64,000 bases of DNA, from NCBI GenBank assembly GCA_964016885.1, contig OZ024743.1:300514001-300578000 (forward strand), read 5' to 3'. The position numbers were made by a program, and so were the translations under genes. Every line of letters begins with the position of its first letter. Position 1 is the first letter of the stretch. Below the pieces are notes generated by a model. It was given only the letters and a program-made list of their open reading frames with translations, had not been told where the DNA came from and searched no databases. This document shows positions 19,067 through 64,000 of this stretch, piece after piece. Origin of the DNA: Eledone cirrhosa. Taxonomy: Eukaryota.

Positions 19067-19143
19067 ATCACCCAGACAACTTGGTGTTGTTTCGCAAAAT
19101 TAATTGTGATAGAATTACCAATTTATGCTCATCAGTGGGTGAT
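19067..19143 (-). ncRNA. Canonical type I hammerhead ribozyme
   Basis: Reverse complement: ATCACCCA-CTGATGA-GCA..TGC-GAAAC-AAC accaa GTT-GTC|TGGGTGAT. 8-bp helix I, G10.1-C11.1 pair, 5-bp helix III, GUC cleavage triplet. Confidence 0.9.
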
Positions 19144-19618
19144 AAATTAGTATCCTAGACACTTCTAAGTATATGAAGTAACTGAAGAGTGTGCTATATA
19201 TAATAGCGCACATGGTATCTTATCGTGTCTCACAAACTTACTCCACTAAAAATAGCAGCCAGGTTTATTCGACATTTGAAATTGCTCAACAAATCAACGG
19301 AGCCGAATATATCAAAGGTATATATTGAGTTAGGAACTCAAAATAGTCTTTTATATTCAATTATAATATACGGCTCGGAAATATCTCTTTCTTAGAGGTA
19401 TTTTGTTCTAAGAGACTATTTTCAGTTCCTAACACCATATATACCTTTGATATATTCGGCTCCGTTAATTTGTTGAGCTATTTCAAATGTCGAATAAACG
19501 TGGCTGCTACTTTTAGTGGTGTAAGTTTGTGAGACACGCTAAGATACCATGTGCGCTATTATATATAGCACACTCTTCAGTTACTTAATATACTTAGAAG
19601 TGTCTAGGATACTAATTC

Positions 19619-19696
19619 ATCACCCACTGATGGGCTTGAATTGGTAATTCTATTCACAATTAACATTGCGAAAGAACACCAAGTTGTCTGGGTGAT
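19619..19696 (+). ncRNA. Mutated copy of the 19067 hammerhead (inverted arm)
   Basis: ATCACCCA-CTGATGG-GC..GC-GAAAGAAC accaa GTT-GTC|TGGGTGAT. A9>G and helix III C>G changes. Confidence 0.7.
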
Positions 19697-20177
19697 TGGT
19701 AGCTCTCACAATTCCGGTTTGTATTTATTTTCTTGATTTTTTTCTTAAATTGAGACAAACAAACCCAATTGTCTATAGTTAGTATTCTTTTCACCATAGC
19801 GAATCTGGTCCCTTACGATTTGAACACATATATGTATATGTCTGTGTACGGTTTTCTTTTATATTCTATTATAATTATATATATATATGTAAAAGGTAAA
19901 CAGATATAACAACATAATCCGTACAGTATATGTAAGGGATATATTAGGTTAACGCTTCATATAGCAGGAAGAGTCTCTTAACGTTTCGGACTCTAGTCTT
20001 TCAGCAGAAGAAGAATGAGAAATAAGATAGAGGGGACGAGCGGGATAGAATTGGAAAATTGCTATATCAAGCGTGAACCTATTACATCCCTACCATATAC
20101 TGTAACGATTGTGTTGTTATTTCTGTTTACCTTTTACATACATACACACACACACACACACACATACACACACACAA

Positions 20178-26524: not shown

Positions 26525-27135
26525 ATTAAATTAAATCAAAGCACGCTTACACGCCAAACAGTTTTTATTTGCTGACAATGTTTCATCCATACCGTTGGAC
26601 AGGAACCATCAGGGCTTAATAAACAAAAATAGGGTGCTCTACCAAGCTTAGTCACACAACCAATTGGAATACAATAGGGAGATGGGAGATGGCAAATAAG
26701 GAGAGAGTCTTTTTATGGGCTTAACACTTTTTCTTTATACCTTTTTTTCTTTTATGATTTTTTAATCTTTTTTATTTATTTTTTATCTCTTTATATTATT
26801 TTCCTTTTACATTTTTATTATATCTTTTAACCATTGTTTATACTTTTTGCTTCTGTGTGTCATCACTTGCATTTGCATATTGTGAACAAATCTGCCTGTA
26901 CCTTAGCATTTAGCTGTGGTGCTTAATAACAACCTTAACATGCACTCTCTCCTTATTCGCCATCTCCAATCTCCCTATTCTTACCCTCTATTTTAATCCA
27001 ATTTTGGTGTGACAAAGCTTGGTAGAGCTATATTTTTTGTTTATTAAGCTCTGATGATTCCTACCCAACGGTATGGATGAAACATTTTCAGCAAATAAAA
27101 ACTGTTTGAGTATGTAAGCGTTCTTTGATTTCATA
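26525..27135. mobile_element. PLE-type terminus as an inverted pair (minus ~26530-26710, plus ~26845-27135), each with a hammerhead
   Basis: Minus 26571-26615: GCC-CTGATGG..GAAAC-ATT-GTC|AGC. Plus 27048-27092: GCT-CTGATGA..GAAAC-ATT-TTC|AGC. The two copies carry complementary defects. Confidence 0.75.
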
Positions 27136-27227
27136 TAACGTCTCTGTTCTCGTACATTGAGCTTCAACAATACTGTCAAAATACGACGCGGTACATGTGT
27201 GTTTACGCTCCGTGCTCTACGTAAATA

Positions 27228-28293: not shown

Positions 28294-28367
28294 GGAGAGA
28301 GAGATTTACACAGATAGACGATACAGTAGGATGTATTTCTAGCATATACATATATAATATATATATA

Positions 28368-28460
<93 letters not shown>

Positions 28461-28463
<3 letters not shown>

Positions 28464-28699
28464 TATCCTGTACTGTTTCACTACTGTTCTGGTGACTAAG
28501 CTTGGTAGGGCTTATATTCAGCACTATATTTTTGTTTATAACGCTCTGATGATTCCTTCCCCACGGTATGGATGAAACATCGTTTCATCCATACCGTGGG
28601 GAAAGAATCATCAGAGCGTTATAAACAAACATATAGTGCTGAATATAAGCCCTACCAAGCTTAGTCACCAGAACAGTAGTGAAACAGTACAGGATAGCA
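28461..28699. repeat. Near-perfect fold-back: 118-bp arms, 3-nt loop (ATC), built from an HHR-containing terminus
   Basis: 28461-28578 is the reverse complement of 28582-28699 with 2 mismatches; CTGATGA at 28546, GAAAC at 28574. The right arm continues to ~28850, homologous to 26845-26990. Confidence 0.95.
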
Positions 28700-28948
28700 A
28701 GAGTGAGATTGGATATGAGAAGGAAGGAGAGAATGCGTACTGGATTCATTAGTCAACATTATAGAAAAACATGATAATACAAGAACACAGGCAGATTTTC
28801 CCACAAGAGACTGAGGCATGTGAAGGCACACAAAAGCAACAAAGGAGGGTATGCATTGGTTACTGTAGAAGACAGGTGATTTAGTTTCATATGCCGTAGA
28901 ATCATAGAAATACTATGAGATCTATAAGGTACCTTCAGAAGGTCTCAG

Positions 28949-29013
<65 letters not shown>

Positions 29014-33282: not shown

Positions 33283-36200
33283 TGTTCTAAGCGGACGAAT
33301 TTTGCTCGGTCACAGTAAGTCGTTAAATATTTCTTGTTGTGTAAGGGATATAAGCCCTTAGACTTTGCCCCGTGAAGGGGAAAGTATAATATTTGGGCCT
33401 TTCGGCCCAAATATTTGAACTTTTTTTTACATATTAAAAAATTTACGAAGAAAAAAAACATGGCTGAGCCACGCCCCCCAGCGATATGTAGGCTGTCGTG
33501 CGTCAACGACGTAGAAGTTGAGAGGAGCGCTACAGCAAAATTAACACACATTGATAACACAAACACCACCACAAACAAGGTAACCAAAGACACCAATGAT
33601 ACCAATAAGAACTCTAATTTTGAAAGAAATGACAGTAAGAGCGACAACGAAAATACAGATAACAAAAAAAAAAAAACAAATACAACAACAATATCAACAC
33701 CACTAACATGAAAACAAATAGCGACAACCCCAACAGCAACAATACCAACTGCACCGAGAACAACGGTGGCAACAAAGTCAACAGTGATAACAGCGACAGT
33801 GCTAACAACAACACCAACAAGAACAACGACAACAAAACCCCCAACGAAAACAAGAAGAACACTTTCGCTGCAAAAAAGAGGCAATGCTTCAACATGGATC
33901 TCTCAAACAAAGATGAAAATTCGGCCCAGGCATGGAAGCTCATTAAGCAAGAGCAAACTTGGGCCAACTTAACTGTCCCGGTAGAAGCTATTGAGGCAGT
34001 GGAGCGCAACACTGTGCATTATAGATGCATCTCAGCACAAACAAAAAGGGCAGCTTTAATCCCAAAAGAAGATGTCGAAGTCGCGTTGAGATGCATAAGA
34101 GAAGACACCCAGTACATAGAGAGGGGCAGGCAGTACGGCACCATTTCGGTGTTGTTCAAGTCAGAAGCCTTCGCTATGAAACACGCTATGATTCCTTGCA
34201 AAACCAGCAAGGTCATAATGTACACCTCCCACATGGGAAAAAGAACGGCCCGTCCTGCATTCCCAGAATCCCACCAGATCTTGACATCTGATGGCTTCTG
34301 GGATGTGTGAATGTGGAGTGGACGGATACAGTCCCTATAGAAGTGACCAGACCGGCCGGAGAGGACTGGTCCGGGGTTGAACTGGAGATTCTTCTACAGA
34401 TCAGACCCGAGAATGTGAAGACAAACCCGGACCACATCATGACCGAAGGCAAAAAGGCCGCCGTGTTTTGTTTGTTGAGAAAAAACCCATTTGCGAGCCT
34501 TCTCCCCTCAACTGCCGAAAGAGGCAAGGGGTCGAAAGGCTCCACTGTTGCCGCCGCTGGGGCGAGGACCACAACCAACACCAGCACCGGCAAAACCACC
34601 AACAACAACACCAATAGAAAGACCACCACCAACATTGATCTCCCAGGGGGGAAACGAGGAAATCTGTCAAATTCCCCCTCCCCCCAAATATGCACACACC
34701 AATAAAACCATAAACATACATACAGACACACTTACAGACACAGACCCATCATCTACCAGTAGTGAAAATGAGGGAAATCAAAAATCCCCTAAAATACAAA
34801 AAAGGAACCACAATAAGAAAAAAAAAACTCAACAAAGCACAAAAGCACCCACAATAAAAAATGCAGACACCACCCACCCAAACATCTCTCCAATAACACC
34901 AACATCAACACCACCATCACCATCATCAGAATCCCCCAAACGCAAACAACCTAAACAGACTCAAGAACATCTGAAACCACAGACATCTGAAACCACAGAC
35001 ACCGCACTCACAACAAACACAGATACAACTGAAACAACACCACTAAAACCATCACCACCACATCCACAAAAACAAATAAAATCACACCAACAAAACATAC
35101 AAAACTTCGTGCTCGTCAGGAGGGCCCACAAGGAACTGATGGCCCTCGTAGCACGAAGTGAAAACATACAAAAAGGGGGAAATTTTTAAATCGAGCACAT
35201 TTCGCGTGCCGGAAGATTTGGTTCGGGTGCAAATGTCGATCGACATATTCAAAGAAATACGAGACAGCTTTCCTCGGGACGTGGGAACCCCGAACGTAAA
35301 ACCCACTTCAAGACTTTTAAAGGGGTTCCCAAAAGAAACCCCACTAACTATGGAGGTCGAACCCCCCGACCTTCACAAGAGCCGGAAGGTAAATAAACCT
35401 TACTCTCTCTCTGTTTAACCTGCCAACATGGCCGTATTAAGAGTAGGATGTTTAAATGTTCGAGGCCTAGATCGTCCTGGAAGCACGGTCACCTGCTCAA
35501 CGACCTCAGGTCTATAGAAATGGATGTAATTGCAGTCAGCGAGACCAGGATTTCGGACACGCGCGCACTAGCCCCCAGTTTCGACGACTATCAGACCTTT
35601 GCATCTGTTAGCCGACCGGGAATGGGAGGCGGGGTGGCAGTGCTGTTTAGGAAATGCCTGGTTCTCGAGGTAAGGTCGATCTTCCGTGACCCGGACGGGA
35701 AGTTGGTGGTCCTGGACATGAACAACAATGAAGGTGGTGCCTTTAGTCTGGTGGCCGTCTATGCTCCTACTGGGGCAGGACGGCCGGACTTCTTTAGACG
35801 CCTAAAAGCCTTTCTGGGTACGTCTCGCCCTTTACTGTTAGCGGGGGACTGGAACGGCATCTTAGACACACGCTAGGACTGTGTGGGAGAATCCGATAGG
35901 AGCGTTGGGTGCAAAGGCCTCAAGAACCTGATCAGCCAGTTCCAACTGTCTGACAGGTACCGACTAGATTTCCCTAATGCGCCAGTGTGGACCTGGGCTA
36001 ACCGCATAGGGTCATCTAGATCGTATATAGACAGGATATTCATTAGGAAAATAGACAGAAATAGTGTAAGCTGTCAACGTTTTGAAACAGTCGCCTATTC
36101 AGATCACAAGTTTGTGATCTGTATGGTCGACCTAGATAAGACGCGTAGGTTAGGACCTGGTTACTGGAAGCTAAACATGTCATTTCCGACACGTAAGGCT

Positions 36201-38735
36201 TACAGGGATCAGGTCAACAATTTAGTTAAGCAAAAGTTGACAGGGGGAATCGTCAACAATAGATGGTGGGGGGCTCTCAAAAGAGAGATTAGAGTAATGT
36301 CGATAGAGTTTAGCAAAGAAATAGCATTAGAGAAAAATAGAAAGGGGGGGGGGGTAGATAAGTTAGACGAGGCTATTAGTAGTGGCATTGCAACTGATGT
36401 GCTAGCGGCGAGAATGGCATTAGACCATTTCTTCAATGCGAAACACGAAGGTTGCATTGTCAGAGCTAAGGCGCGTACTCTGAGAAAGGAGGAAACCAAA
36501 GCTGTTCGATGAGCCCGCGTGGCAGAGGCGCAGCGTGGTAATAAAACCACGATTCGGTGTTTGAAGAACCGAGACGGGCACGAGCTGAGCGATTCCAAGA
36601 GGATGTGTGAGGCCTTTGGCCAACATTTGGCTCGGTTGTTCGGGGGAAGTGGCGGATCAGAGATGGTGGCGGACTTCAGTCCCTACCTCGATGACTTGCC
36701 GCCACTCTCGACGGCTGAGGCTGGGCGCTGCGAAAGGCCAGTTACTTTAGCCGAGATTCAGGATGCCCTTGTCGGCTGCATGAAGCGCAAGTCACCCGGT
36801 TTGGATGGTCTGCCCTACGAGCTTTACTTAAATATGCCAGACTTGTTCTCCAATTTCCTCGAAGCCTTCTACTGCAACTGGCAGCAAAACGGGAGTATTC
36901 CCAGTTCTGTGAGCCGGGGCGTAGTGACGCTGATAAGGAAAGACGAGAATAAGAGGGACACATTAGACAATTTCAGGCCCATAACTCTGCTCAACACAGA
37001 GTTTAAGATTTTGGCCAGGGTGTTAGTGATGAGGTTGGGGCTTGTCGTCGGGGATTTTGTTGGGGAGGCGCAAACTTGCGCAATCCCAACCAGGTCCATA
37101 CACGAAAACCTCCACCTAATGCGATACATCATAGAGAGGGTAGAGTGTAAACCTAGCTTCGGTGGGGCTCTGATCAATTTAGATCAATCGAAAGCATTCG
37201 ATAGGGTCGACCATCGGTACCTGGAGGCTGTCCTCAAGGCGGCTGGTTTCGGCCCCGTCTTCAGAACCTGGATTGCTGCAATGCACAGCGGCATCTGCTC
37301 GATGGTCAAAATTAATGGCCACCTCTCAGAACCGTTTCAGGTCTCCCGATCGGTCCGCCAAGGGTGCCCTCTCTCCTCTCTTCTTCACGTATTTACTCTC
37401 GAGCCTTTACAGCGGAAGCTGGAGCTGTTGCAGGGCATCCCGCTGGAACCGGGACGCGGAAAGGCTCTGTCGGCTTATGCGCACGACATCACCGTAATGG
37501 TGGCGGACACCTCAGAAATCGAGGTGATCGGCAACTTATTGGAGGAATATGAAAGTTTGACGGGAGCAAAACTTAACCCGGAAAAGTCAGTGGGCTTGAA
37601 ACTCGGCAACTGGAGAGGCAAGTCCATGCCGTCCAACAGCATCGTTAGGCGCTGCACGGACGGACTGGTAAATTTGCTAGGGGTTTGGTTCGGGCCAGAC
37701 CTTCAGGTGGATAAGAATTGGGACGAGGTGACGGGCAGGATAGTCAGTCTCACCCAGAAATGGGCTGGGTGAAGATATCACTGAAAGGTCGGGCGGAGGT
37801 GGCGAACGCGTACATCGCGCCGTCATCTACTACCGTCTGACTGTCGTCCCTTGCCCCCGTTCGCGCCTCGCCATCTTGGAGCGGCTCCTCTTCAAATTCT
37901 GGTGGAGGGGTGAGATTACGCTGGTGAGGCAGTCCATCTGCTGCAAGCACCCTCTACGTGGATGACTGGGCGTGCCGTGGCTAATGATGCGCAGGCAGGC
38001 GCTGAGGCTGCGGCATCTCCAGATATTCTGCCTAAACGGTGAACAGGTGTGGTAGCCGTTTGTCAGACGGGCCTTTCCGCAGCTCGTTTCTTTGACTGAG
38101 TCGCAGTCCTGGGTCACGAAGAGACCGAGACTGGGTGACTGGCATCTACCAGGCGGGCAATGCGGTCAGTGAAACTTCCACTCTCGAGTTCTATAGATGT
38201 TTAGTGGTGGGCAAGTGCGACGACGCACTAGGAGAGGCTCTGGGAGTCAACGAAGTCGAACTAACCAGTCTGTACCGGAGGACGTTCGAGCCGGGGACGA
38301 TAGATAATTACCCAAAATCCCTCGCTTGGCAGTGCTACCGGGGAGGCACTGCCGGTTCGAGATAAACTCTACATGCACGGAAGTGCTGTCAGATCGAGCT
38401 GCCTGAGATGCGCGCAGAGCGACTAAACCGTTCTGCACCCACTCGTCCAGTGTCCGTACATTACTGACTTGTGGAGTTATGTTGAACAGCTGTTGTCGCG
38501 TGTAGAACGGATCCGGCTATCGGCCGAGTCCATAGTGAAGATCGACCCGCCACCTTCTTTTGGCCAGGAAGGGCAGGCAATTTTCCTCTGTCTGGTGGCA
38601 GTAGCGAAAGAGGTTGTATGGTGGACGAAGTTGAAAGGACAGAAGACAGACACTTTTCTCTTCGGCCAATCCCTCATCAACTTTTTCAAGTTTCACTTGG
38701 AAAGGAAGGTGAGGGTGGAGAGAGAAGTGCTGCCA
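33283..38735 (+). mobile_element. L1/Tx1-clade element, near full length (5'UTR, ORF1, ORF2), 3' end lost, decayed
   Basis: ORF1 ~33460-35418, frameshifted, with a decayed CFVC*EKTHLRAFS gag-type knuckle at ~34465-34505. ORF2 from 35428 (MAVLRVGCLNVRGL..SETR..GDWNG..SDHK..KSPGLDG..NFRPITLLN..RQGCPLS) with stops. Confidence 0.95.
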
Positions 38736-38915: not shown

Positions 38916-39929
38916 AAATGTGTTACCAATTCCATTCTCTCACTCTCTATCCTTCTCTGGAAGAAATATGCAATGCATGCATGGTTTGCCTTGTTTCTGG
39001 ATTCAAGAACAACATTAACGACAAGGATGAGAGACAACAGTAACGAAACCACCACCACCACCACCAATAATAATGACGGTGACGTGAGTGAACAACCGCA
39101 CCACCATCAACAATAATGACGGCAATGAGCTGCACGAATAGCGCCAAAAACACCACCACCTCCAAAAACAAAGTTGACGACTTACTCAGTTACCTCAAAT
39201 ACGGTGATGTAACTGACAACATCGCAACAGACTAGGATGGGATAGGTTGTTAGGGTAGGTTGTGGTAGAGGTGAAAATAATTCGTTTTAATATTAGCGCG
39301 TCGCAAGTAATTTGAAGAGAATTTTGAAAAGTCGATTAAATAGACCCAAATGCGTTATGGGTACTTTATTTTATCAACCACCAAGTAGGAAATGCAAAGA
39401 TAACCTTGGCAGGATTAGAACCCAAAACGTAAAAAGCCATAAATATATGCCGCATATCATGTCGTACTTTCTATATATACTGCACAGTTATTTTGATGTT
39501 ACTAATGATAATAATGGTTTCTGATTTAGGTACAAGGCCAGAAAATGTACATGAAATTACTTGGGAAATACATGTAAAGTCACATAAATGCATACATGGA
39601 AACGCTTACATCTCACGCTTTACCTTTTCAGTACCACGGGCGGTATGATTCGTCCTAACATGTTTGAACACGTTCTGACAGTTCATAACTTCAAAGTTAT
39701 GAAATCGTTTCCAACAATTCATTACTTCAAAGCTTGATCGGGTTACAAGCGTACTCATGTGATGTTTGTCACTCATTAAGTAAGATATGTGTTGTTAATA
39801 AATATTTGTTTAAAAAAAATAATCATACTACTGAAGAAGAAAAAAATCGGCACAGGCAATGTAGCTGTGTAAAATATACCCGGCAGTCAACAGATTAAGT
39901 CAGCAATCCCATAATTCATATATATATAT

Positions 39930-40213
39930 ATCAACTATAAATAGATTGACATATATATATATAAAATAAACATATGAAACAATCACAGGGAATAATTTAT
40001 AAAGAATGTAAGCACACATAGCTAGGTCGGTAACTAATTAAAGTTTAACTAGAACTTCAATGATTTTAAAAGGTATCTATATTTGAAGTTCTAGCTAAAC
40101 TTTAATTAGTTACCTACCTAGCTATGTGTGCTTACATTCTTTACAAATTATTCCCTGTGATTGTTTCATATGTTTATTTTATATATATATATGTCAATCT
40201 ATTTATAGTTGAT
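39930..40213. repeat. Inverted repeat: 131-bp arms, 22-nt spacer
   Basis: 39930-40060 is the reverse complement of 40083-40213 with a few mismatches. Confidence 0.9.
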
Positions 40214-40310
40214 GTGTAATGCTCAGATCTATTCATTGGAATCTTTGAGCTTATTCTACAGTGAATATGGTGCATGTCTCTCAGACATGATGACCCTTAA
40301 TTTTTATTTT

Positions 40311-56603: not shown

Positions 56604-59600
56604 CATCTTCGATGACTTTGAGATCTACGCATCTCTCTGTCAACCGGGGGTGGGGGCGGAGTTGCCGTTTTGCTGCGGAAACACCTGGGCCTCGTAACAC
56701 AGACGGTACATCTGGACCCGGAGGGTCGACTGGTGGTCCTAGACGTTGACGGTAGTGAAGGTGGAGCCTTCAGGCTGGTGGCCGCATATGCCCCATCCGG
56801 GACACCGCGGCCAGACTTCTTCAAACGTCTAGAGACTTTTCTGGGAACGTCCCGCTCCTTGCTTTTAGTGGGGGACTGGAATGGAATCCTAGATGCACGT
56901 TGGGACTATGTGGGAGCATGTCCCGACAAAGGGGGGTGTAACAGCCTCAAACAGTTAATCGACCGATTTGACCTGGCCGATAGATATCGACTAGATTTTC
57001 CGACTGCGCCAATGTGGACGTGGAGTAATCGTAGCGGAACATCTAGATCGTACCTAGATAGGGTTCTAGTTAGAAATAAGGATAGGGACATGTTAAGCTG
57101 TCCACAAATGTTAATGGTTGCCTATTCAGATCACAAACTAGTGACCTGCATGGCCAACCTTGATAGAACCCATAGACAAGGACCCGGCTACTGGAAGCTG
57201 AACTTGTCGTTACCGACAAGCAAAGCCTACAGTAGACGGATTAGCACTTTAGTTAAACAGCACTTGACAGGGGACATTGTCAACAACAGATGGTGGTACT
57301 CTCTCAAGAGGGCAGTTAGATTAGACTCGATAGTTTTTAGTAAAGAATTAGCGTTAGATAGAAATAGAACCGAGAAGGAACTGGTAGATAAAGTAGAAGA
57401 GGCAATTAGAAGTGGCAACGTAGCCAGCGTGCTAGCAACGAGAACGGCCTTGGACCAGTTCTTCGACGCAAAGCACGAGGGCTGCGTTGTCAGAAGCAAA
57501 ATACGTGCTCTGGGAAACGAGGGAGCCAAAGCTGTTAGCTGGGCCCGGGTGACGGAGGCAAAAAGTGGCAACAAGTCCACGATTCGGTCTTTGAAGGACC
57601 AAAACGGACGCGTGATACGTGAGCCGAAGCAGATGTGTGCGGCTTTTCAGCGGCACTTTGCTCGGCTGTTCGGGGGGAGCGGAGCGCCGGGAGAGGCTAT
57701 GGATTTCGGTCCATACCTCGACGGCCTACCGCGACTCTCGGACAGTGAGGCGAAGTTCTGCGAAAAGCCGATTTCAGCCACTGAGATAGGGGACGCGCTG
57801 AGCCAATGCGGCAAACGCAAATCTCCAGGTCTCGACGGTCTACCCTACGAATTTTACGTAGCAATGCCGGACTTATTCTCCGGTCTCCTGGAAGCGGTCT
57901 ACTGCAACTGGCAACAGAACGGGAGAATTCCCAGTTCTGTAACCGGGGGCGTGGTCACACTAATCAGGAAGGACGAGAATAAGGGGGATGACATAGGCAA
58001 CTTCCGGCCCATAACTCTGCTAAACAGAGTTACAGATTTTGGCCAAGGTGTTGGCAAAGAGGCTGGCGCTTGTCGTCGAGAACCTGGTGGGAGAAGCGCA
58101 GACATGCGCGATCCCGACCAGGTCCATACACGACAACCTCCACCTCATGCGATACATCATAGAGAGGGTAGGGTGTAAACCCGGCTTCGGTGGGGCCCTG
58201 ATCAACTTGGATCAGTCTAAGGCTTTCGATAGGGTTGACCATCGTTACCTGGATGCGGTGCTCGAGGCGGCAGGCTTCGGACCCGTGTTCAGGGGCTGGA
58301 TTGCTGCAATGCACAACAGCAACATCTGCTCAAGGGTCAAGGTGAACGGTTACCTCTCGGAGCCGTTCCATATTACGCGATCCATTCGACAGGGATGCCC
58401 TCTCTCCTCCCTTCTGTACGTACTGACTCTCGAGCCACTACTGCGGAAGCTGGAGCTATTGCAGGGCATCCCTCTGGAACCGGGACTGCGGAAAGCGGCG
58501 TCGGCCTACGCCGACGACGTGACAGTAATGGTGTCGAGCGCCTCGCAAATCGAGGAAGTCGGCACCTTACTAAAGGAATACGAAAGTCTCACAGGAGCGA
58601 AGCTGAACCGGGACAAGTCCATCGGTTTGCAACTCGGATCGTGGAGAGGCAGACCGATGCCTTCCGATGGCGTCGTCGGACGCTGGACGGAAGGACCGGT
58701 AAAGCTGCTCGGGGTCTGGTTTGGTCCGGACCTCCAGGTGGAGAAGAACTGGAACGAAGTGACGGTCAAGGTGTTTGCACTCACCCAGAAGTGGGCCGAG
58801 TGCAAACTATCCTTAAAAGGTCGAGCGGAGGTGGCGAACACTTTTATAGCGTCCGCCATCTACTACCGCTTGACCGTCGTGCCTTGTCCAGCCAAAACGC
58901 TCGCCAAAATGGAGCGCGCCCTCTTCCGATTCCTTTGGAAGAGGCGGGCTCCTTTGGTAAGAAGATCCATCTGCTGCCAACACCCTTCTAACGGAGGGCT
59001 GGGGATGCCGTGGTTGACGATGCGCAAACACGCGCTCAGGCTGCGGCATCTCTACGTATTCCTCACCGGACAACCGGTGTGGGCCCCGTTCGTGAGGCGA
59101 GCCTTCCCACGACTCGTCTCGCTGACCGAGCTGCAGTCCTGGGTCAAGCAGAGACCGAGGAAAATGGGCGAGTGGCACATCGAATGTGCTCAGGCGCTCA
59201 CAGCCCTCTGGCAGGCGGACCCAGCGATCAGTGGAGACTCCACTTCGTCATTCTATAGAGGGTTGGTCCGCAGCAAGTGCGACGACGCGCTCGGTGAAAC
59301 TCTAGGCGTGGAGGAAGATGAACTGGCCAGTCTGTTCGGTAGGACCTTCCGCCCGGGACCGATGGACAACTTCCAAAAGTCCCTGGCCTGGCAGTGCTAC
59401 CGAGGAGCTCTACCAGTTCGAGACAAGCTCTACAGACATGGGCGCCCGGGCAGGGACCCTGCAAAAAAGATTTGTCCGAGGTGCGTGCGAGACGAAGAAA
59501 CCGTCGCGCACGCATTCATACACTGCCCGGGCGTCACTGACCTGTGGGGCTATGTAGAACGACTATTGTCGCGGGTGGGACCAATCCAGTTGACCACCGA

Positions 59601-60127
59601 GTCCATTGTCATGATCAAACCGCCACCCTCCTTCAAAAACGAAGGAGAGGCGGTTTTCCTTTGTGTGATAGCTATGGCGAAAGAGGTTGTATGGTGGACA
59701 AGGTTGAAAGGGCTGAGGTCAGACACCTTTCTCTCCGGCCAACAACTGATTCTTTTTTTCAAATACCACTTTGGAAGAAGAATCAGGATGGAGAGAGAGG
59801 TGCTGTACCCCAGCAAGTTTTATGAAAGGTGGGTGAAAGTGGCGAGAATGGCCCGAGTGAATGGGCCTTCTCTCTATATCAGCCTGTAGGTTGAGGAAAA
59901 GGAGGAGGAGAGGAAAGGAGTACAAGCTCTTCGTACTCCTGGAGATGAGGGTTGCACATTTTTTTCGGGGGTCTGTGTCACCCATATAAACTGTCTCCCT
60001 CTATTGGGGAAAATCGACTAACTTTTAAATTCCATCTGTGATAACATTTTACACGTTTTTATTGTATGTAAACTTCCCCCTTTGTATTTGTCTCCTTCTT
60101 TTGTGCCCCTGTGGCTAATAAAGAAAT
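56604..60127 (+). mobile_element. L1/Tx1-clade element, 5'-truncated, ORF2 almost intact
   Basis: ORFs 56670-58178 and 58039-59889 join through one frameshift at ~58025 (ITLLN[T]ELQILAK). APE, RT (YADD) and CPRC..H..HC motifs all present; (TATC)n at both ends. Confidence 0.97.
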
Positions 60128-60432
60128 ATATCTATCTATCTATATATCTATCTATCTATCTATCTATCTGTCTCTCCCTCTATGTGTGTTTGTGTATGTG
60201 TTTGTGTGTGTGTGCGTGTAAATATAAACAGTAAACAGGAAAGTTGACAGGGCCCGCAGAATGTTTCCTGGATACTCAGAACTTTCCGGTTGAGAGATAT
60301 CCTCACAATTATCCTTCTATTCTGTACATTTGCCCGAAACTACCTTGAATACTGTTGTATAATCTGGTCTCCCCACACGAAACTAAAGAATCATGAAAAT
60401 TGATGCAAATCAAATGTCAACCACAAGACAGA

Positions 60433-63400
60433 TATATTTATTTATTAGCCACAAACGCGCACCAGAAAAGGGGACAAAACAAAGACATGCCGGGGAATTT
60501 ACATACAATCGTGTAAAAAATATAAAACAAACAATTATAACAATCGAAATCCCCAATAGTGGGGGGAGGGGGGCTCCACAAATGGTTTGTGTAATACCCC
60601 ATCGATAGAACAACCCTCAACTCCAGGAGCGTGTTGTGCAAGTGCCCTTTCTGCCTTTTGCTCTCTTCTTTAAGCTACAGGCTTATATTTAGAGAAGGCC
60701 CAATCACTCGGGCCATTTTCGCTTCATTCACCCACCTTTCAGTAAATTTACTGGAGTGCAGTGCCTGTCTCTCCTCTCTGATTCTCCTTCTAAAGAGATA
60801 CTTAAAGAAGGGAATCAATTGTTGTCCGGAGAGAAAGGCATCTGTCCTCAATCTTCTCAATCTCGTCCACCATATAACTTCTTTCACCATAGACACTGTA
60901 CAGAGGAAAACCGCCTCTCTTTCCTTTTTGAAAGAGGCTGGCGGTTTGGTCCTTACTATGGGACACGTCAGTCAACTGGATTTGTCCCAGTTGCGACCGC
61001 AGTTGTTCTGCATAGTTCCACAGGTCGTTTACGCCCGGGCAGTGTACAATTGCGTGCAAGACGGTTTCAATGTCCTGCTCGCATCTTGGACACATCCTCT
61101 TGGAAGGATCCTGCCGGGCGTCCCTGCCTGTAGATCTTATCTCGAACGGGTAGAGCTCCTCGGTTGCACTGCCAGGCCAGGGACCTCTGGAAGATGTCCA
61201 TAGGTCCCGGGCGGAAAGTCCTGCCGAAGAGACTGGTGAGCATGTCGTTATCGGTGCACGTCGTCGCACTTGAAAAGATCTAACCCTCCATAGAATGTCA
61301 AAGTGGAGTCTCCGCTTGACAGAGGACTGTGAGCCCTTGGGCGCATTCAATGTGCCAGGCGCCCATCTTCTTCGGTCTTCGCTTGACCCAGGACTGCAGC
61401 TCCGTCAGCGAGACAAGTTGTGGGAAAGCCTGTCTCCCACACGGTGCCCACACCGGTTGGTCTGTGAGGAATACCTGGAAATGCCGTAGCCTCAGCGCAT
61501 GTTTGAGCATCATTAGTCACGGCATGCCCAGCCCTTCATTGGATGGGTGTTGACAGTAGTCGGATCTCCTCATCAGTTGAGCCTGTTTCTTCCACAGGAA
61601 CTGGAAGAGCATGCGTTCCATTTTGGTGAGGTATTCACGGGGACAAGGCACGACAGTCAAGCGTAAGTAGATGACGGACGCTATGAAAGAGTTCGCCACC
61701 TCCGCTCGACCTTTCAAAGACAGCTTGACATCTGCCCACTTCTGGGTGAGCGCAAATACCTTGCCCATGATCTCGTTGCAGTTTTTCTCCACCTGGATGT
61801 CTGGATCGAACCAGACCCCGAGCAATTTCACCGGTCCTTCCGTCCAGCGTCCGACAACGCTATCGGACGGCATCGGTTTGCCTCTCCACGTTCCGAGTTA
61901 CAAACGGACAGACTTTTCCGGGTTCAGTTTTGCTCCTGTGAAACTTTCGGATTCCTGTAGTAGGTTGCCGATTACCTCGATTTCCGAGGTTTTCGACACC
62001 ATTACCGTCATGTCGTTGGCATAAGCCGACGCCGCTTTTCGCAGTCCTGGTTCTAAAGGGATGCCAGAAAAAGCTCCAACTTCCGCAGTAGTGATTCTAG
62101 AGTCAATACGTACAGAATGGAGGAGATAGGGCATCCCTGTTGAATAGAACGCGTGATTGCACACGGCTCCGATAGGTAGCCGTTCACCTTGACCTTCGAG
62201 CAGATGCTGGTGTGCATCGCCTTGATCAGCCTCTGAAAACGGGACCGAAAACGGTCGCCTTGAGGACCGCTCCCAATATTCGATGGTCGACCCTATCGAA
62301 TGCCTTAGATTCATCTATATTGATCAGAGCCCCACCGAAGCCGGGTGTACACCCCACCCTCTCTATGATGTATCGCAAGAGGTGAAGGTTGTCGTGTATG
62401 TACCTGGACGGGATTGCACACGTTTGCGCTTTCCCTACCTGGTTTTCGACGACAAGCGCCAGCCTCGTTGCTAGCACCTTGGCAAAAATCTTGAGCAGAG
62501 TTATGGGTCTGAAATTGTTTATTTCGTCCCCCTTGTTCTCGTCTTTCATGATCAGCGTCACTACGCCCTTGCCTGCATAATTGCGAATTGTCCCGTTCTG
62601 CTGCCAATTGCAGTAGACGCCGTCGAGGAAGCCAGAGAACAAGTCTGGCATGACTATGTAAAACTCATAGGGTAGACCGTCTAGACCGGGTGATTTGCGT
62701 TTCCCGCAGCGGCCCAGAGCCTCCCGTATCTCAGTGGCTGTGATCGGTCCTTCGCAGAACTTGGCGTCCATCCTCGAAAGACGCGACAGGCCGTCAAGAT
62801 ATGAACCAAAGTCCATTGCCCCGTTCGGTGCACCGTCGTTCTGCTCAAACAGTCGCGCAAAGTGCCGCTGAAAGGCCGCGCAGATCTGCCTGGGGTCAAG
62901 TAGCACGCGTCCGCTTTGGTCTTTCAAAGACCGAATCGTGGACTTGTTACCACTATTCGTTTCCGCCACTCGGGCCCAGTCATCAGTTTCCTAGGGCACG
63001 TCATTTAGACCACGCAGCCTTCATGTTTCGCGTCGAAGAACTGGTCCAGTGCCGTTCTCGATGCTAGCACTCTATCTGCGTTGCCATTCCTAAGCGCCTC
63101 TTCTACCTTGGCTAGTAGTTCTGTTTCGAATGTGTTTCTCTCTAAAGCTAATTCTCTGCAAAACCCTATCGATTCTACTCTAATTGCTCTTTTGAGAGAG
63201 TACCACCATCTATTGTTGACGATGGCTCCCGTCAAATCTTGCTTAACTAATCTACTTATCCGTTCACTGTAGGCTTTTCGTGCCGGCAACGACACGTTCA
63301 GCTTCCAGTATCCGGGTCCTTGTCTATGTATTCTATAATGGTTGACTATGCAGACGACTAGTTTGTGATCTGAATAGGCAACCATGTGCATTTGTGGACA

Positions 63401-64000
63401 GCTTAACATCTACTTGTACTTCTCTCTAATGAAAAACCTATCTAGATACGATCTAGATGTCGCGCTGCGGTTTGCCCATGTTCACTGTGGTGCAGTCGGG
63501 GAATCTAGTCGATAACTGTCGGCCAGTTGGAATTGGCCGATTAGATTTTTGAGGCTGTTGCACCCCCCCCCCCTACTGGGACATACACCCACATAGTTCC
63601 ATCGTGCGTCTAGGATACCATTCCAGTCCCCCACTAAAAGCAAGATGCGAGATGTGAGTTTTGGTGGTTTTGTGGTGTCTCTCTTTTTGTGTTTTGGATT
63701 TCCAAGGCTCTCTTCTTCTTCACTTAAAGAAGGAGGAGCAGCCTCATCTGTTGAGGAATAATCATCATCAGGAGTGTGGGGTAGGGTTATGTTCGGTGGT
63801 GATGGTGTTTTGGTGTTTGTTTGTGGTAGTGTTGGATTGAGTGAGGTGGTGTGGGGCTTTATTCTTCAGGGGTGCTGTCTGTGTTTTTTCTGTTGTTTGT
63901 GGTTGAGTGGTTGTCTCTTTGGGTGTGTTTGCTTGTTTTGTGTGTTGTTGTGGTGGTGGTGATTGTTTTGGTGTTGGTGTTGGTAAAAGTACTTTCTTTT
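60433..64000 (-). mobile_element. L1/Tx1-clade element, decayed, internally deleted; runs off the right edge
   Basis: Minus ORFs carry SDHK, GPGYWKLN, KSPGLDGLPYE, DESKAFDRVDH, CPRC..HC. At ~63657 the endonuclease abuts T/P/K-rich ORF1-like sequence. 3' end TGTGGCTAATAAA at ~60440. Confidence 0.93.

Follow-up and report, generated by a model that had tools for sequence, protein, structure and literature searches.

A rare tail-to-tail fold-back at helix III of a hammerhead motif in a Hydra-clade-like Penelope-like element of Eledone cirrhosa

We analysed a stretch of 64,000 nucleotides of Eledone cirrhosa DNA (contig OZ024743.1, forward-strand positions 300,514,001 to 300,578,000; hereafter the window, to which all coordinates without a prefix refer) containing a palindrome with 118-bp arms whose tip is helix III of a hammerhead motif. 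The palindrome is far beyond chance, while its placement at helix III is not clearly so. Our main reading, to which we assign a probability of about 0.5, is a tail-to-tail fold-back made in DNA after insertion of the element, in which a single-stranded 3' end would have paired at the helix III sequence AAC-ATY-GTT and then been extended. The structure is real and rare and lies in a known kind of element (a Penelope-like element, PLE), with a known type of repair event probably behind it. The general claim of an earlier sequence-only reading, that hammerhead cleavage links mechanistically to the inverted termini of PLE insertions, is not supported, and the corresponding claim for this single event has low odds.

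The features of the locus and of a related pair are listed below. We take the hammerhead numbering (position 17 at T28584, pair A14-U17) to be that of established hammerhead knowledge.

28344..28461, no strand: imperfect (TA)n tract adjoining the left arm, seen in the sequence
28461..28578, plus strand: left arm, a 5'-truncated terminal repeat (pLTR) fragment of a Hydra-clade-like PLE in sense, with the helix III loop in the family orientation
28542..28584, plus strand: minimal type I hammerhead up to position 17
Parts of this hammerhead, plus strand: helix I 5' strand CGCT, CTGATGA (28546-28552), helix II, GAAAC (28574-28578), ATC, GTT
28576..28584, plus strand: apex, micro inverted repeat AAC-ATC-GTT (helix III plus A14-U17); the scissile bond would come after 28584
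28582..28945, minus strand: right arm, an inverted pLTR copy, of which 28582-28699 pairs with the left arm and 28700-28945 is further family sequence
28948..29011, no strand: (CT)n(TA)n tract adjoining the right arm, the repeat type found after intact tails of the family
26526-26708 (minus strand) and 26944-27138 (plus strand): head-to-head inverted pLTR pair of a related subfamily, arms 81% identical

Pairing outward from C28578/G28582, the arms (28461-28578 and 28582-28699) agree at 116 of 118 pairs around a loop at 28579-28581 that reads ATC on the plus strand and GAT on the minus strand; the two mismatches are 28556/28604 and 28530/28630. The fold-back described earlier, with a left arm reading GCT-CTGATGA-stem II-GAAAC-ATC-GT, is therefore present. 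The arms are unequal: the right one matches the pLTR family out to about 28945, and the left one halts at the (TA)n tract at 28461. The hammerhead of the left arm carries a G>T change in helix II at 28558 and is without the helix I 3' strand and the tail.

Copies of the closest subfamily (about 87-93% identical to the arms) mostly read GAAAC-ATT-GTT/AGC. The tip is therefore the 3-bp AAC-ATC-GTT with position 17 at T28584. The junction could fall at any base of 28582-28584, bounded on the right by the scissile bond; judged from the copies, its position can coincide exactly with the cleavage site. The sequence-only reading, which had started the inversion at the cleavage nucleotide with AC/GT as the helix III tip, has the geometry right, and with a tip of 3 bp the fit is closer than it noticed. 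The copy that it took as the unbroken form (26612-26571, minus strand) does read GAAAC-ATT-GTC-AGC, but it is only about 75% identical, and closer copies read GTT/AGC. A short inverted repeat, AAC-ATT-GTT, was already present at the apex in the parent copies. Since helix III is a micro inverted repeat ending at the cleavage site, any fold-back there lands on that site, and since A14-U17 extends the micro repeat of GUU ribozymes exactly to it, RNA snap-back and DNA fold-back yield the same junction. The match to the cleavage site thus follows from hammerhead architecture, in which the GUU micro repeat ends at position 17, and a helix III apex is expected from this architecture alone.

The arms are pLTR sequence of an old fragment of a PLE, whose label is kept at "Hydra-clade-like" because Pfam searches did not confirm the domains. 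At locus L037 two direct pLTRs 5.3 kb apart flank a broken ORF, which matches the PLE protein P0002 over residues 1-662. A DKT motif stands in place of DKG (SDKTKN in L037, SDKTGN and ADKTSN in P0001 and P0002), the CxCX5C linker reads CNCRRRENC in L037:4997-5392, and the RWK motif reads RWK in P0002 and RWR in P0001 and has decayed to RLS in L037. The YRDD core is present in L026, inspection by eye picked out KIYVG as resembling GIY-YIG, and, pointing to (TA)n insertion, the tails of aligned copies adjoin TA or CT/TA repeats. Searches of Pfam (ORF pieces and 4 of 9 homologues) and of PDB (P0001, nothing significant) returned no RT or GIY-YIG match.

The pLTR-ORF-pLTR layout (L037), the DKT, CxCX5C and YRDD motifs, the pLTR hammerhead, the (TA)n insertion and the inverted 5'-truncated partner copies resemble the Hydra clade PLEs, as the part of Craig et al. 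2021 (PMC8557442) available to us describes them. The inverted copies published there lie at the 5' end, head-to-head, whereas the present pair is tail-to-tail with both tails gone. In the window, at least five broken ORF regions resemble P0001/P0002 (3842-4675, 14334-16129, 40768-41645, 45401-47285 and 50166-52705).

Intact copies of the family read CGCT-CTGATGA-helix II-GAAAC-ATT-GTH-AGCG, with type I hammerhead cores, helix II, an NUH site and helix I, and are predicted minimal type I hammerheads. A 14-mer of the family ribozyme has 995 genome matches as against 4 in the control. Position 17, read by eye in the helix-III-intact copies among the first 100 matches listed, is almost always U, C or A and never G, which suggests that these ribozymes were functional. 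An Rfam scan of the window gave no hammerhead match, only microsatellite-driven miRNA matches, and RNA folding did not recover the hammerhead fold (z-scores -1.44 to 1.72). A bulged base before helix II, a long helix II and a short near-palindromic helix III are shared with the metazoan PLE minimal type I hammerheads, going by an excerpt of Cervera and de la Pena 2014 (PMC4209133); unlike those, no ribozyme can form at the 28461-28699 locus, since the helix I 3' strand is lost.

The usual inverted pairs have a head-to-head arrangement in which the ribozymes are intact, the tails face outward and the arms are 88-96% identical. Ribozyme motifs and tails also point outward in the pair at 26526..27138, whose plus-strand copy has GTC changed to TTC. 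The window holds a further head-to-head pair at 19070-19700, with 245-bp arms at 94% set 55 nt apart; its two outer ends carry motifs of another family that resemble hammerheads. Head-to-head fold-backs are also seen in a very short hammerhead family, CTGATGATTTC...GAAACAGTTCTAG (L063:1391-1528, L021:2259-2386, L098, L106), where CTGATGA follows a few bases 3' of the apex and the insert is little beyond two back-to-back ribozymes and their tails.

We assessed how often such fold-backs recur. Intact hammerhead motifs have 17,960 matches genome-wide and 624 in the control, about 17,300 above control and from many PLE-type families; motifs and fold-backs were searched with exact patterns, so these counts are lower bounds. 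With a pattern tied to no particular family, describing a hammerhead that folds back on a 3-nt loop of helix III, the 28461-28699 locus was the sole match in the genome. It was also the single fold-back found genome-wide within 75 bp after AAGCTTGGTAG, where helix III accounts for 2 of the 8 micro-repeat entries listed. Candidates at L032 and L033 are unrelated palindromes, L034 is a chance match, and L088 was rejected, not being a hammerhead in that orientation. Families with CCGAAAC showed no fold-back (4 unrelated matches, judged from the listing).

Tail-to-tail pairs were also sought more broadly with two-gap patterns, which returned 11, 4, 15 and 105 matches, with 30 loci examined among the 105. 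In most of the 51 locus records examined, a TA tract separates two tails that point towards each other, or the match is due to chance. Direct fold-backs numbered three, small numbers in any case: the 28461-28699 locus and L092, both at helix III, and L165, whose apex lies at +18 in the tail on an AAGCTT micro-palindrome. L092 (G000:C25:8231422-8231466, minus strand) belongs to another GUU family (parent reading GTT-AGTG at L142) and reads GAAAC-AATT-GTT plus 9 templated bases, followed by a tRNA-like repeat; with a chance expectation of about 0.07 for its 9-nt fold-back, this second candidate is about as likely as chance.

The background rate was measured in 400 kb of evenly spaced sequence, which holds 12 fold-backs, half of them with loops of at most 5 nt; several of these are element-end junctions, and the background density is therefore an upper bound. 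At this density, 0.04-0.26 fold-backs would be expected at a single fixed centre across 17,300 motifs, prior to micro-repeat weighting. Two near-perfect inverted duplications, L163 (312 bp with 1 mismatch) and L157 (160 bp with 2), have (TA)n at their centre and extend beyond the element ends, indicating that DNA-level events of such size do happen in this genome.

The age of the duplication was judged from variants. Three variants common to both arms are rare among 32 aligned copies: T>A is confined to the two arms among 43 exact 34-mer matches, A>G occurs at one other locus among exact matches, and G>T occurs at one other locus among 3 exact matches (ancestral at the other two sites) and in one aligned copy. 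No copy with two of the three was seen in the exact-pattern searches or among the aligned copies. One of the three gives a U-U mismatch in helix II. The nearest family copy differs from the arms by 8%, and the arms differ from each other at 2 of 118 positions. For comparison, six sister pairs, each from a single locus (five head-to-head and one direct), have 4, 10, 11, 8, 6 and 9 differences and 0-2 rare variants in common. Each contrast gives a Poisson P of about 0.014.

Taken together, the two differences and three shared rare variants make the duplication likely younger than the insertion. The simplest reading of the variants is that the duplication, or a homogenisation of the arms, postdates decay of the copy in place; the arms do not look as old as the insertion, unless they were homogenised or the source copy was lost. 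L083 likewise has close arms, with 5 differences in 175 and two rare variants in common, and the sharing of variants may therefore not be confined to late events. Homogenisation is not obligatory, as tight palindromes in the old elements L063, L021 and L080 have arms about 84-86% identical.

In the reading that we prefer, a DNA fold-back after insertion, (1) a break would have occurred at or near the TA/CT tract behind the element tail, (2) the sense 3' end would have folded at helix III, its unpaired tail being trimmed, (3) about 360 nt would have been copied and then joined to the (CT)n(TA)n end, and (4) the original left arm would later have been cut to 118 bp. Of the two mechanisms proposed by the sequence-only reading, template switching is the better one; priming from a ribozyme-generated end is disfavoured, the arms looking younger than the insertion. 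Work in yeast (Yu et al. 2024, PMC11724301; Al-Zain et al. 2023, PMC10622511) describes priming by fold-back where a short inverted repeat lies next to a break, together with trimming and the joining of ends. As in the present locus, an existing short inverted repeat primes, distal sequence is lost and the other end is joined with little homology. On the other hand, in the sections of these papers that we used, the repeats measure 5-11 bp and local insertions are mostly 5-34 bp, as opposed to 3 bp and about 360 bp here.

The fold-back of L165 at a different micro-palindrome counts for the DNA reading. Its weak point is the loop: with ATC on the plus strand, the short left arm must have served as template, which calls for a further deletion step. 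Four further observations count against it, namely the 3-bp stem, shorter than the yeast repeats cited above; the position at helix III of the sole fold-back in the 75 bp after AAGCTTGGTAG; the second helix III case, L092, in another GUU family; and the stops at +2/+3, inside loop 3, of three of the four asymmetric tail-to-tail pairs from one search. A homogenisation of the arms could, moreover, mimic a late origin.

Such homogenisation enters the next explanation, a central deletion, which we regard as unlikely. Here a tail-to-tail pair would already have existed (a full-tail copy, TA filler and an inverted copy starting from helix III), its spacer would have been lost between GTT microhomologies, and the arms would be young or homogenised. 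L083, of the same subfamily, reads GAAAC-ATTGTT-tail-(TA)-GTTTCATCC, and loss of an L083-like middle between its two GTT would give the observed junction with the loop in the correct orientation. Tail-to-tail pairs across (TA)n are also common, as the searches with 15 and 105 matches indicate. What weighs against a deletion is that the 2 differences and 3 shared variants need homogenisation or a recent duplication, the former not being obligatory in view of the palindromes at L063, L021 and L080.

A ribozyme-primed snap-back is, in our judgement, quite unlikely. The 5' product GAAAC-AUY-GUU would fold through U17-A14, the RT of the element would extend this product along the product's own sense RNA, and the resulting hairpin would be captured in a TA tract. 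The locus and L092 would then be a fossil of hammerhead-cleaved Penelope RNA with a self-priming GUU end, an improbable origin and a rare side path. The junction can be placed exactly at position 17, unequal arms arise naturally, L092 supplies a second helix III case, and the position 17 pattern (first 100 matches listed, by eye) suggests functional ribozymes. Asymmetric tail-to-tail pairs give a further hint in its favour, since their stops cluster near helix III, at +2 (L083), +2 (L085), +3 (L090), +4 (L155, L161), +12, +14, +19 and +21, although the spacer limit of the two-gap searches biases these pairs to short offsets. In L083, L085, L090, L155 and L161 one copy halts or is deleted 2-4 nt past GAAAC, in or at the end of helix III.

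Against the snap-back stand the single long case among about 17,300 motifs, the U-U mismatch in helix II and the shared variants, which require a decayed source copy; none was found in exact-pattern searches. The 5' product of a hammerhead ends in a 2',3'-cyclic phosphate, and healing would be needed before priming. The anole PLE ribozyme is dispensable for in vitro insertion, and no RNA reads start or end at its site (PMC11167929). Minimal PLE hammerheads cleave poorly as monomers, according to the portion of PMC4209133 at hand, where cleavage and circularisation are proposed, not snap-back priming. Arkhipova et al. 2013 (PMC3846280) explain palindromic PLE junctions by self-priming and predict tail-to-tail repeats where the template is sense, as seen here, which favours the snap-back; the usual outcome in their model is head-to-head, and the section available to us invokes no ribozyme.

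We investigated whether the cleavage site is where copies terminate. Of about 995 copies, 18 are non-canonical, that is, without AG at +7/+8, and at a sensitivity of about 56% none stops at position 17 besides the 28461-28699 locus. Two of the 18 are this locus and eight have small indels that keep the tail. Internal deletions account for three (L109 and L119 on inspection, L118 as judged from the listing) and a different repeat for four (L113 inspected); in the last one, the break into TA comes at about +4. Three apparent breaks directly after GAAAC were chance matches and not family copies.

In the GAATGAAAC family, TA-abutting 3' ends were tallied by eye in the first 100 of 164 rows, with position 17 placed at +4 by inference. 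They fall at -5 (4), -4 (4), 0 (4), +3 (5), +4 (5), +6 (5), +9 (3), +12 (9) and +13/14 (about 15), with about 10 in helix II, the remaining rows being internal deletions or unclear. In these 100 there is no 3'-break peak at the cleavage site, even with +3 and +4 pooled, which also counts against the snap-back.

A library or assembly fold-back chimera is very unlikely, since a chimera would copy an arm exactly and these arms carry two arm-specific substitutions and unequal lengths; among the contigs listed for runs X1-X3 none reaches across the apex, with the unique flanks there at depth 7-9 and 0 differences, but contigs drop rare variants, so gaps prove nothing, and the non-palindromic distal arm is likewise absent as one exact piece among the contigs listed.

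Cleavage as a general source of PLE inverted termini is not supported, given the one long case against 17,960 matches, the head-to-head orientation of ordinary pairs, the finding that no copy besides this locus stops at position 17 among the 18 non-canonical matches, and the missing peak at the cleavage site among the GAATGAAAC rows tallied. The useful result is this negative one: in a genome with about 17,300 motifs, cleavage-site ends are seemingly not a regular insertion terminus. The role of the hammerhead in endonuclease-bearing PLEs is described as "still unclear" in the part of PMC8557442 that we used, and we found no description of hammerhead snap-back priming in PLEs in the main texts, supplements aside, of the open-access literature. 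If the junction were nonetheless ribozyme-made, it would be in vivo evidence of metazoan PLE hammerhead cleavage and of sense self-priming.

Other inverted structures were observed in passing. The window contains a palindrome at 39925-40218 with 136-bp arms (96%) and a 22-nt spacer, and long GC-rich repeats at 56931-63575 and 35897-38028 that are mutually inverted and 74-84% complementary. Elsewhere in the genome, near-perfect palindromes lie beside (TA)n at L077:2274-2676 and L055:6327-6564, with arms of 200 and 119 bp and 1 mismatch each; related copies of L077 start at or near its apex.
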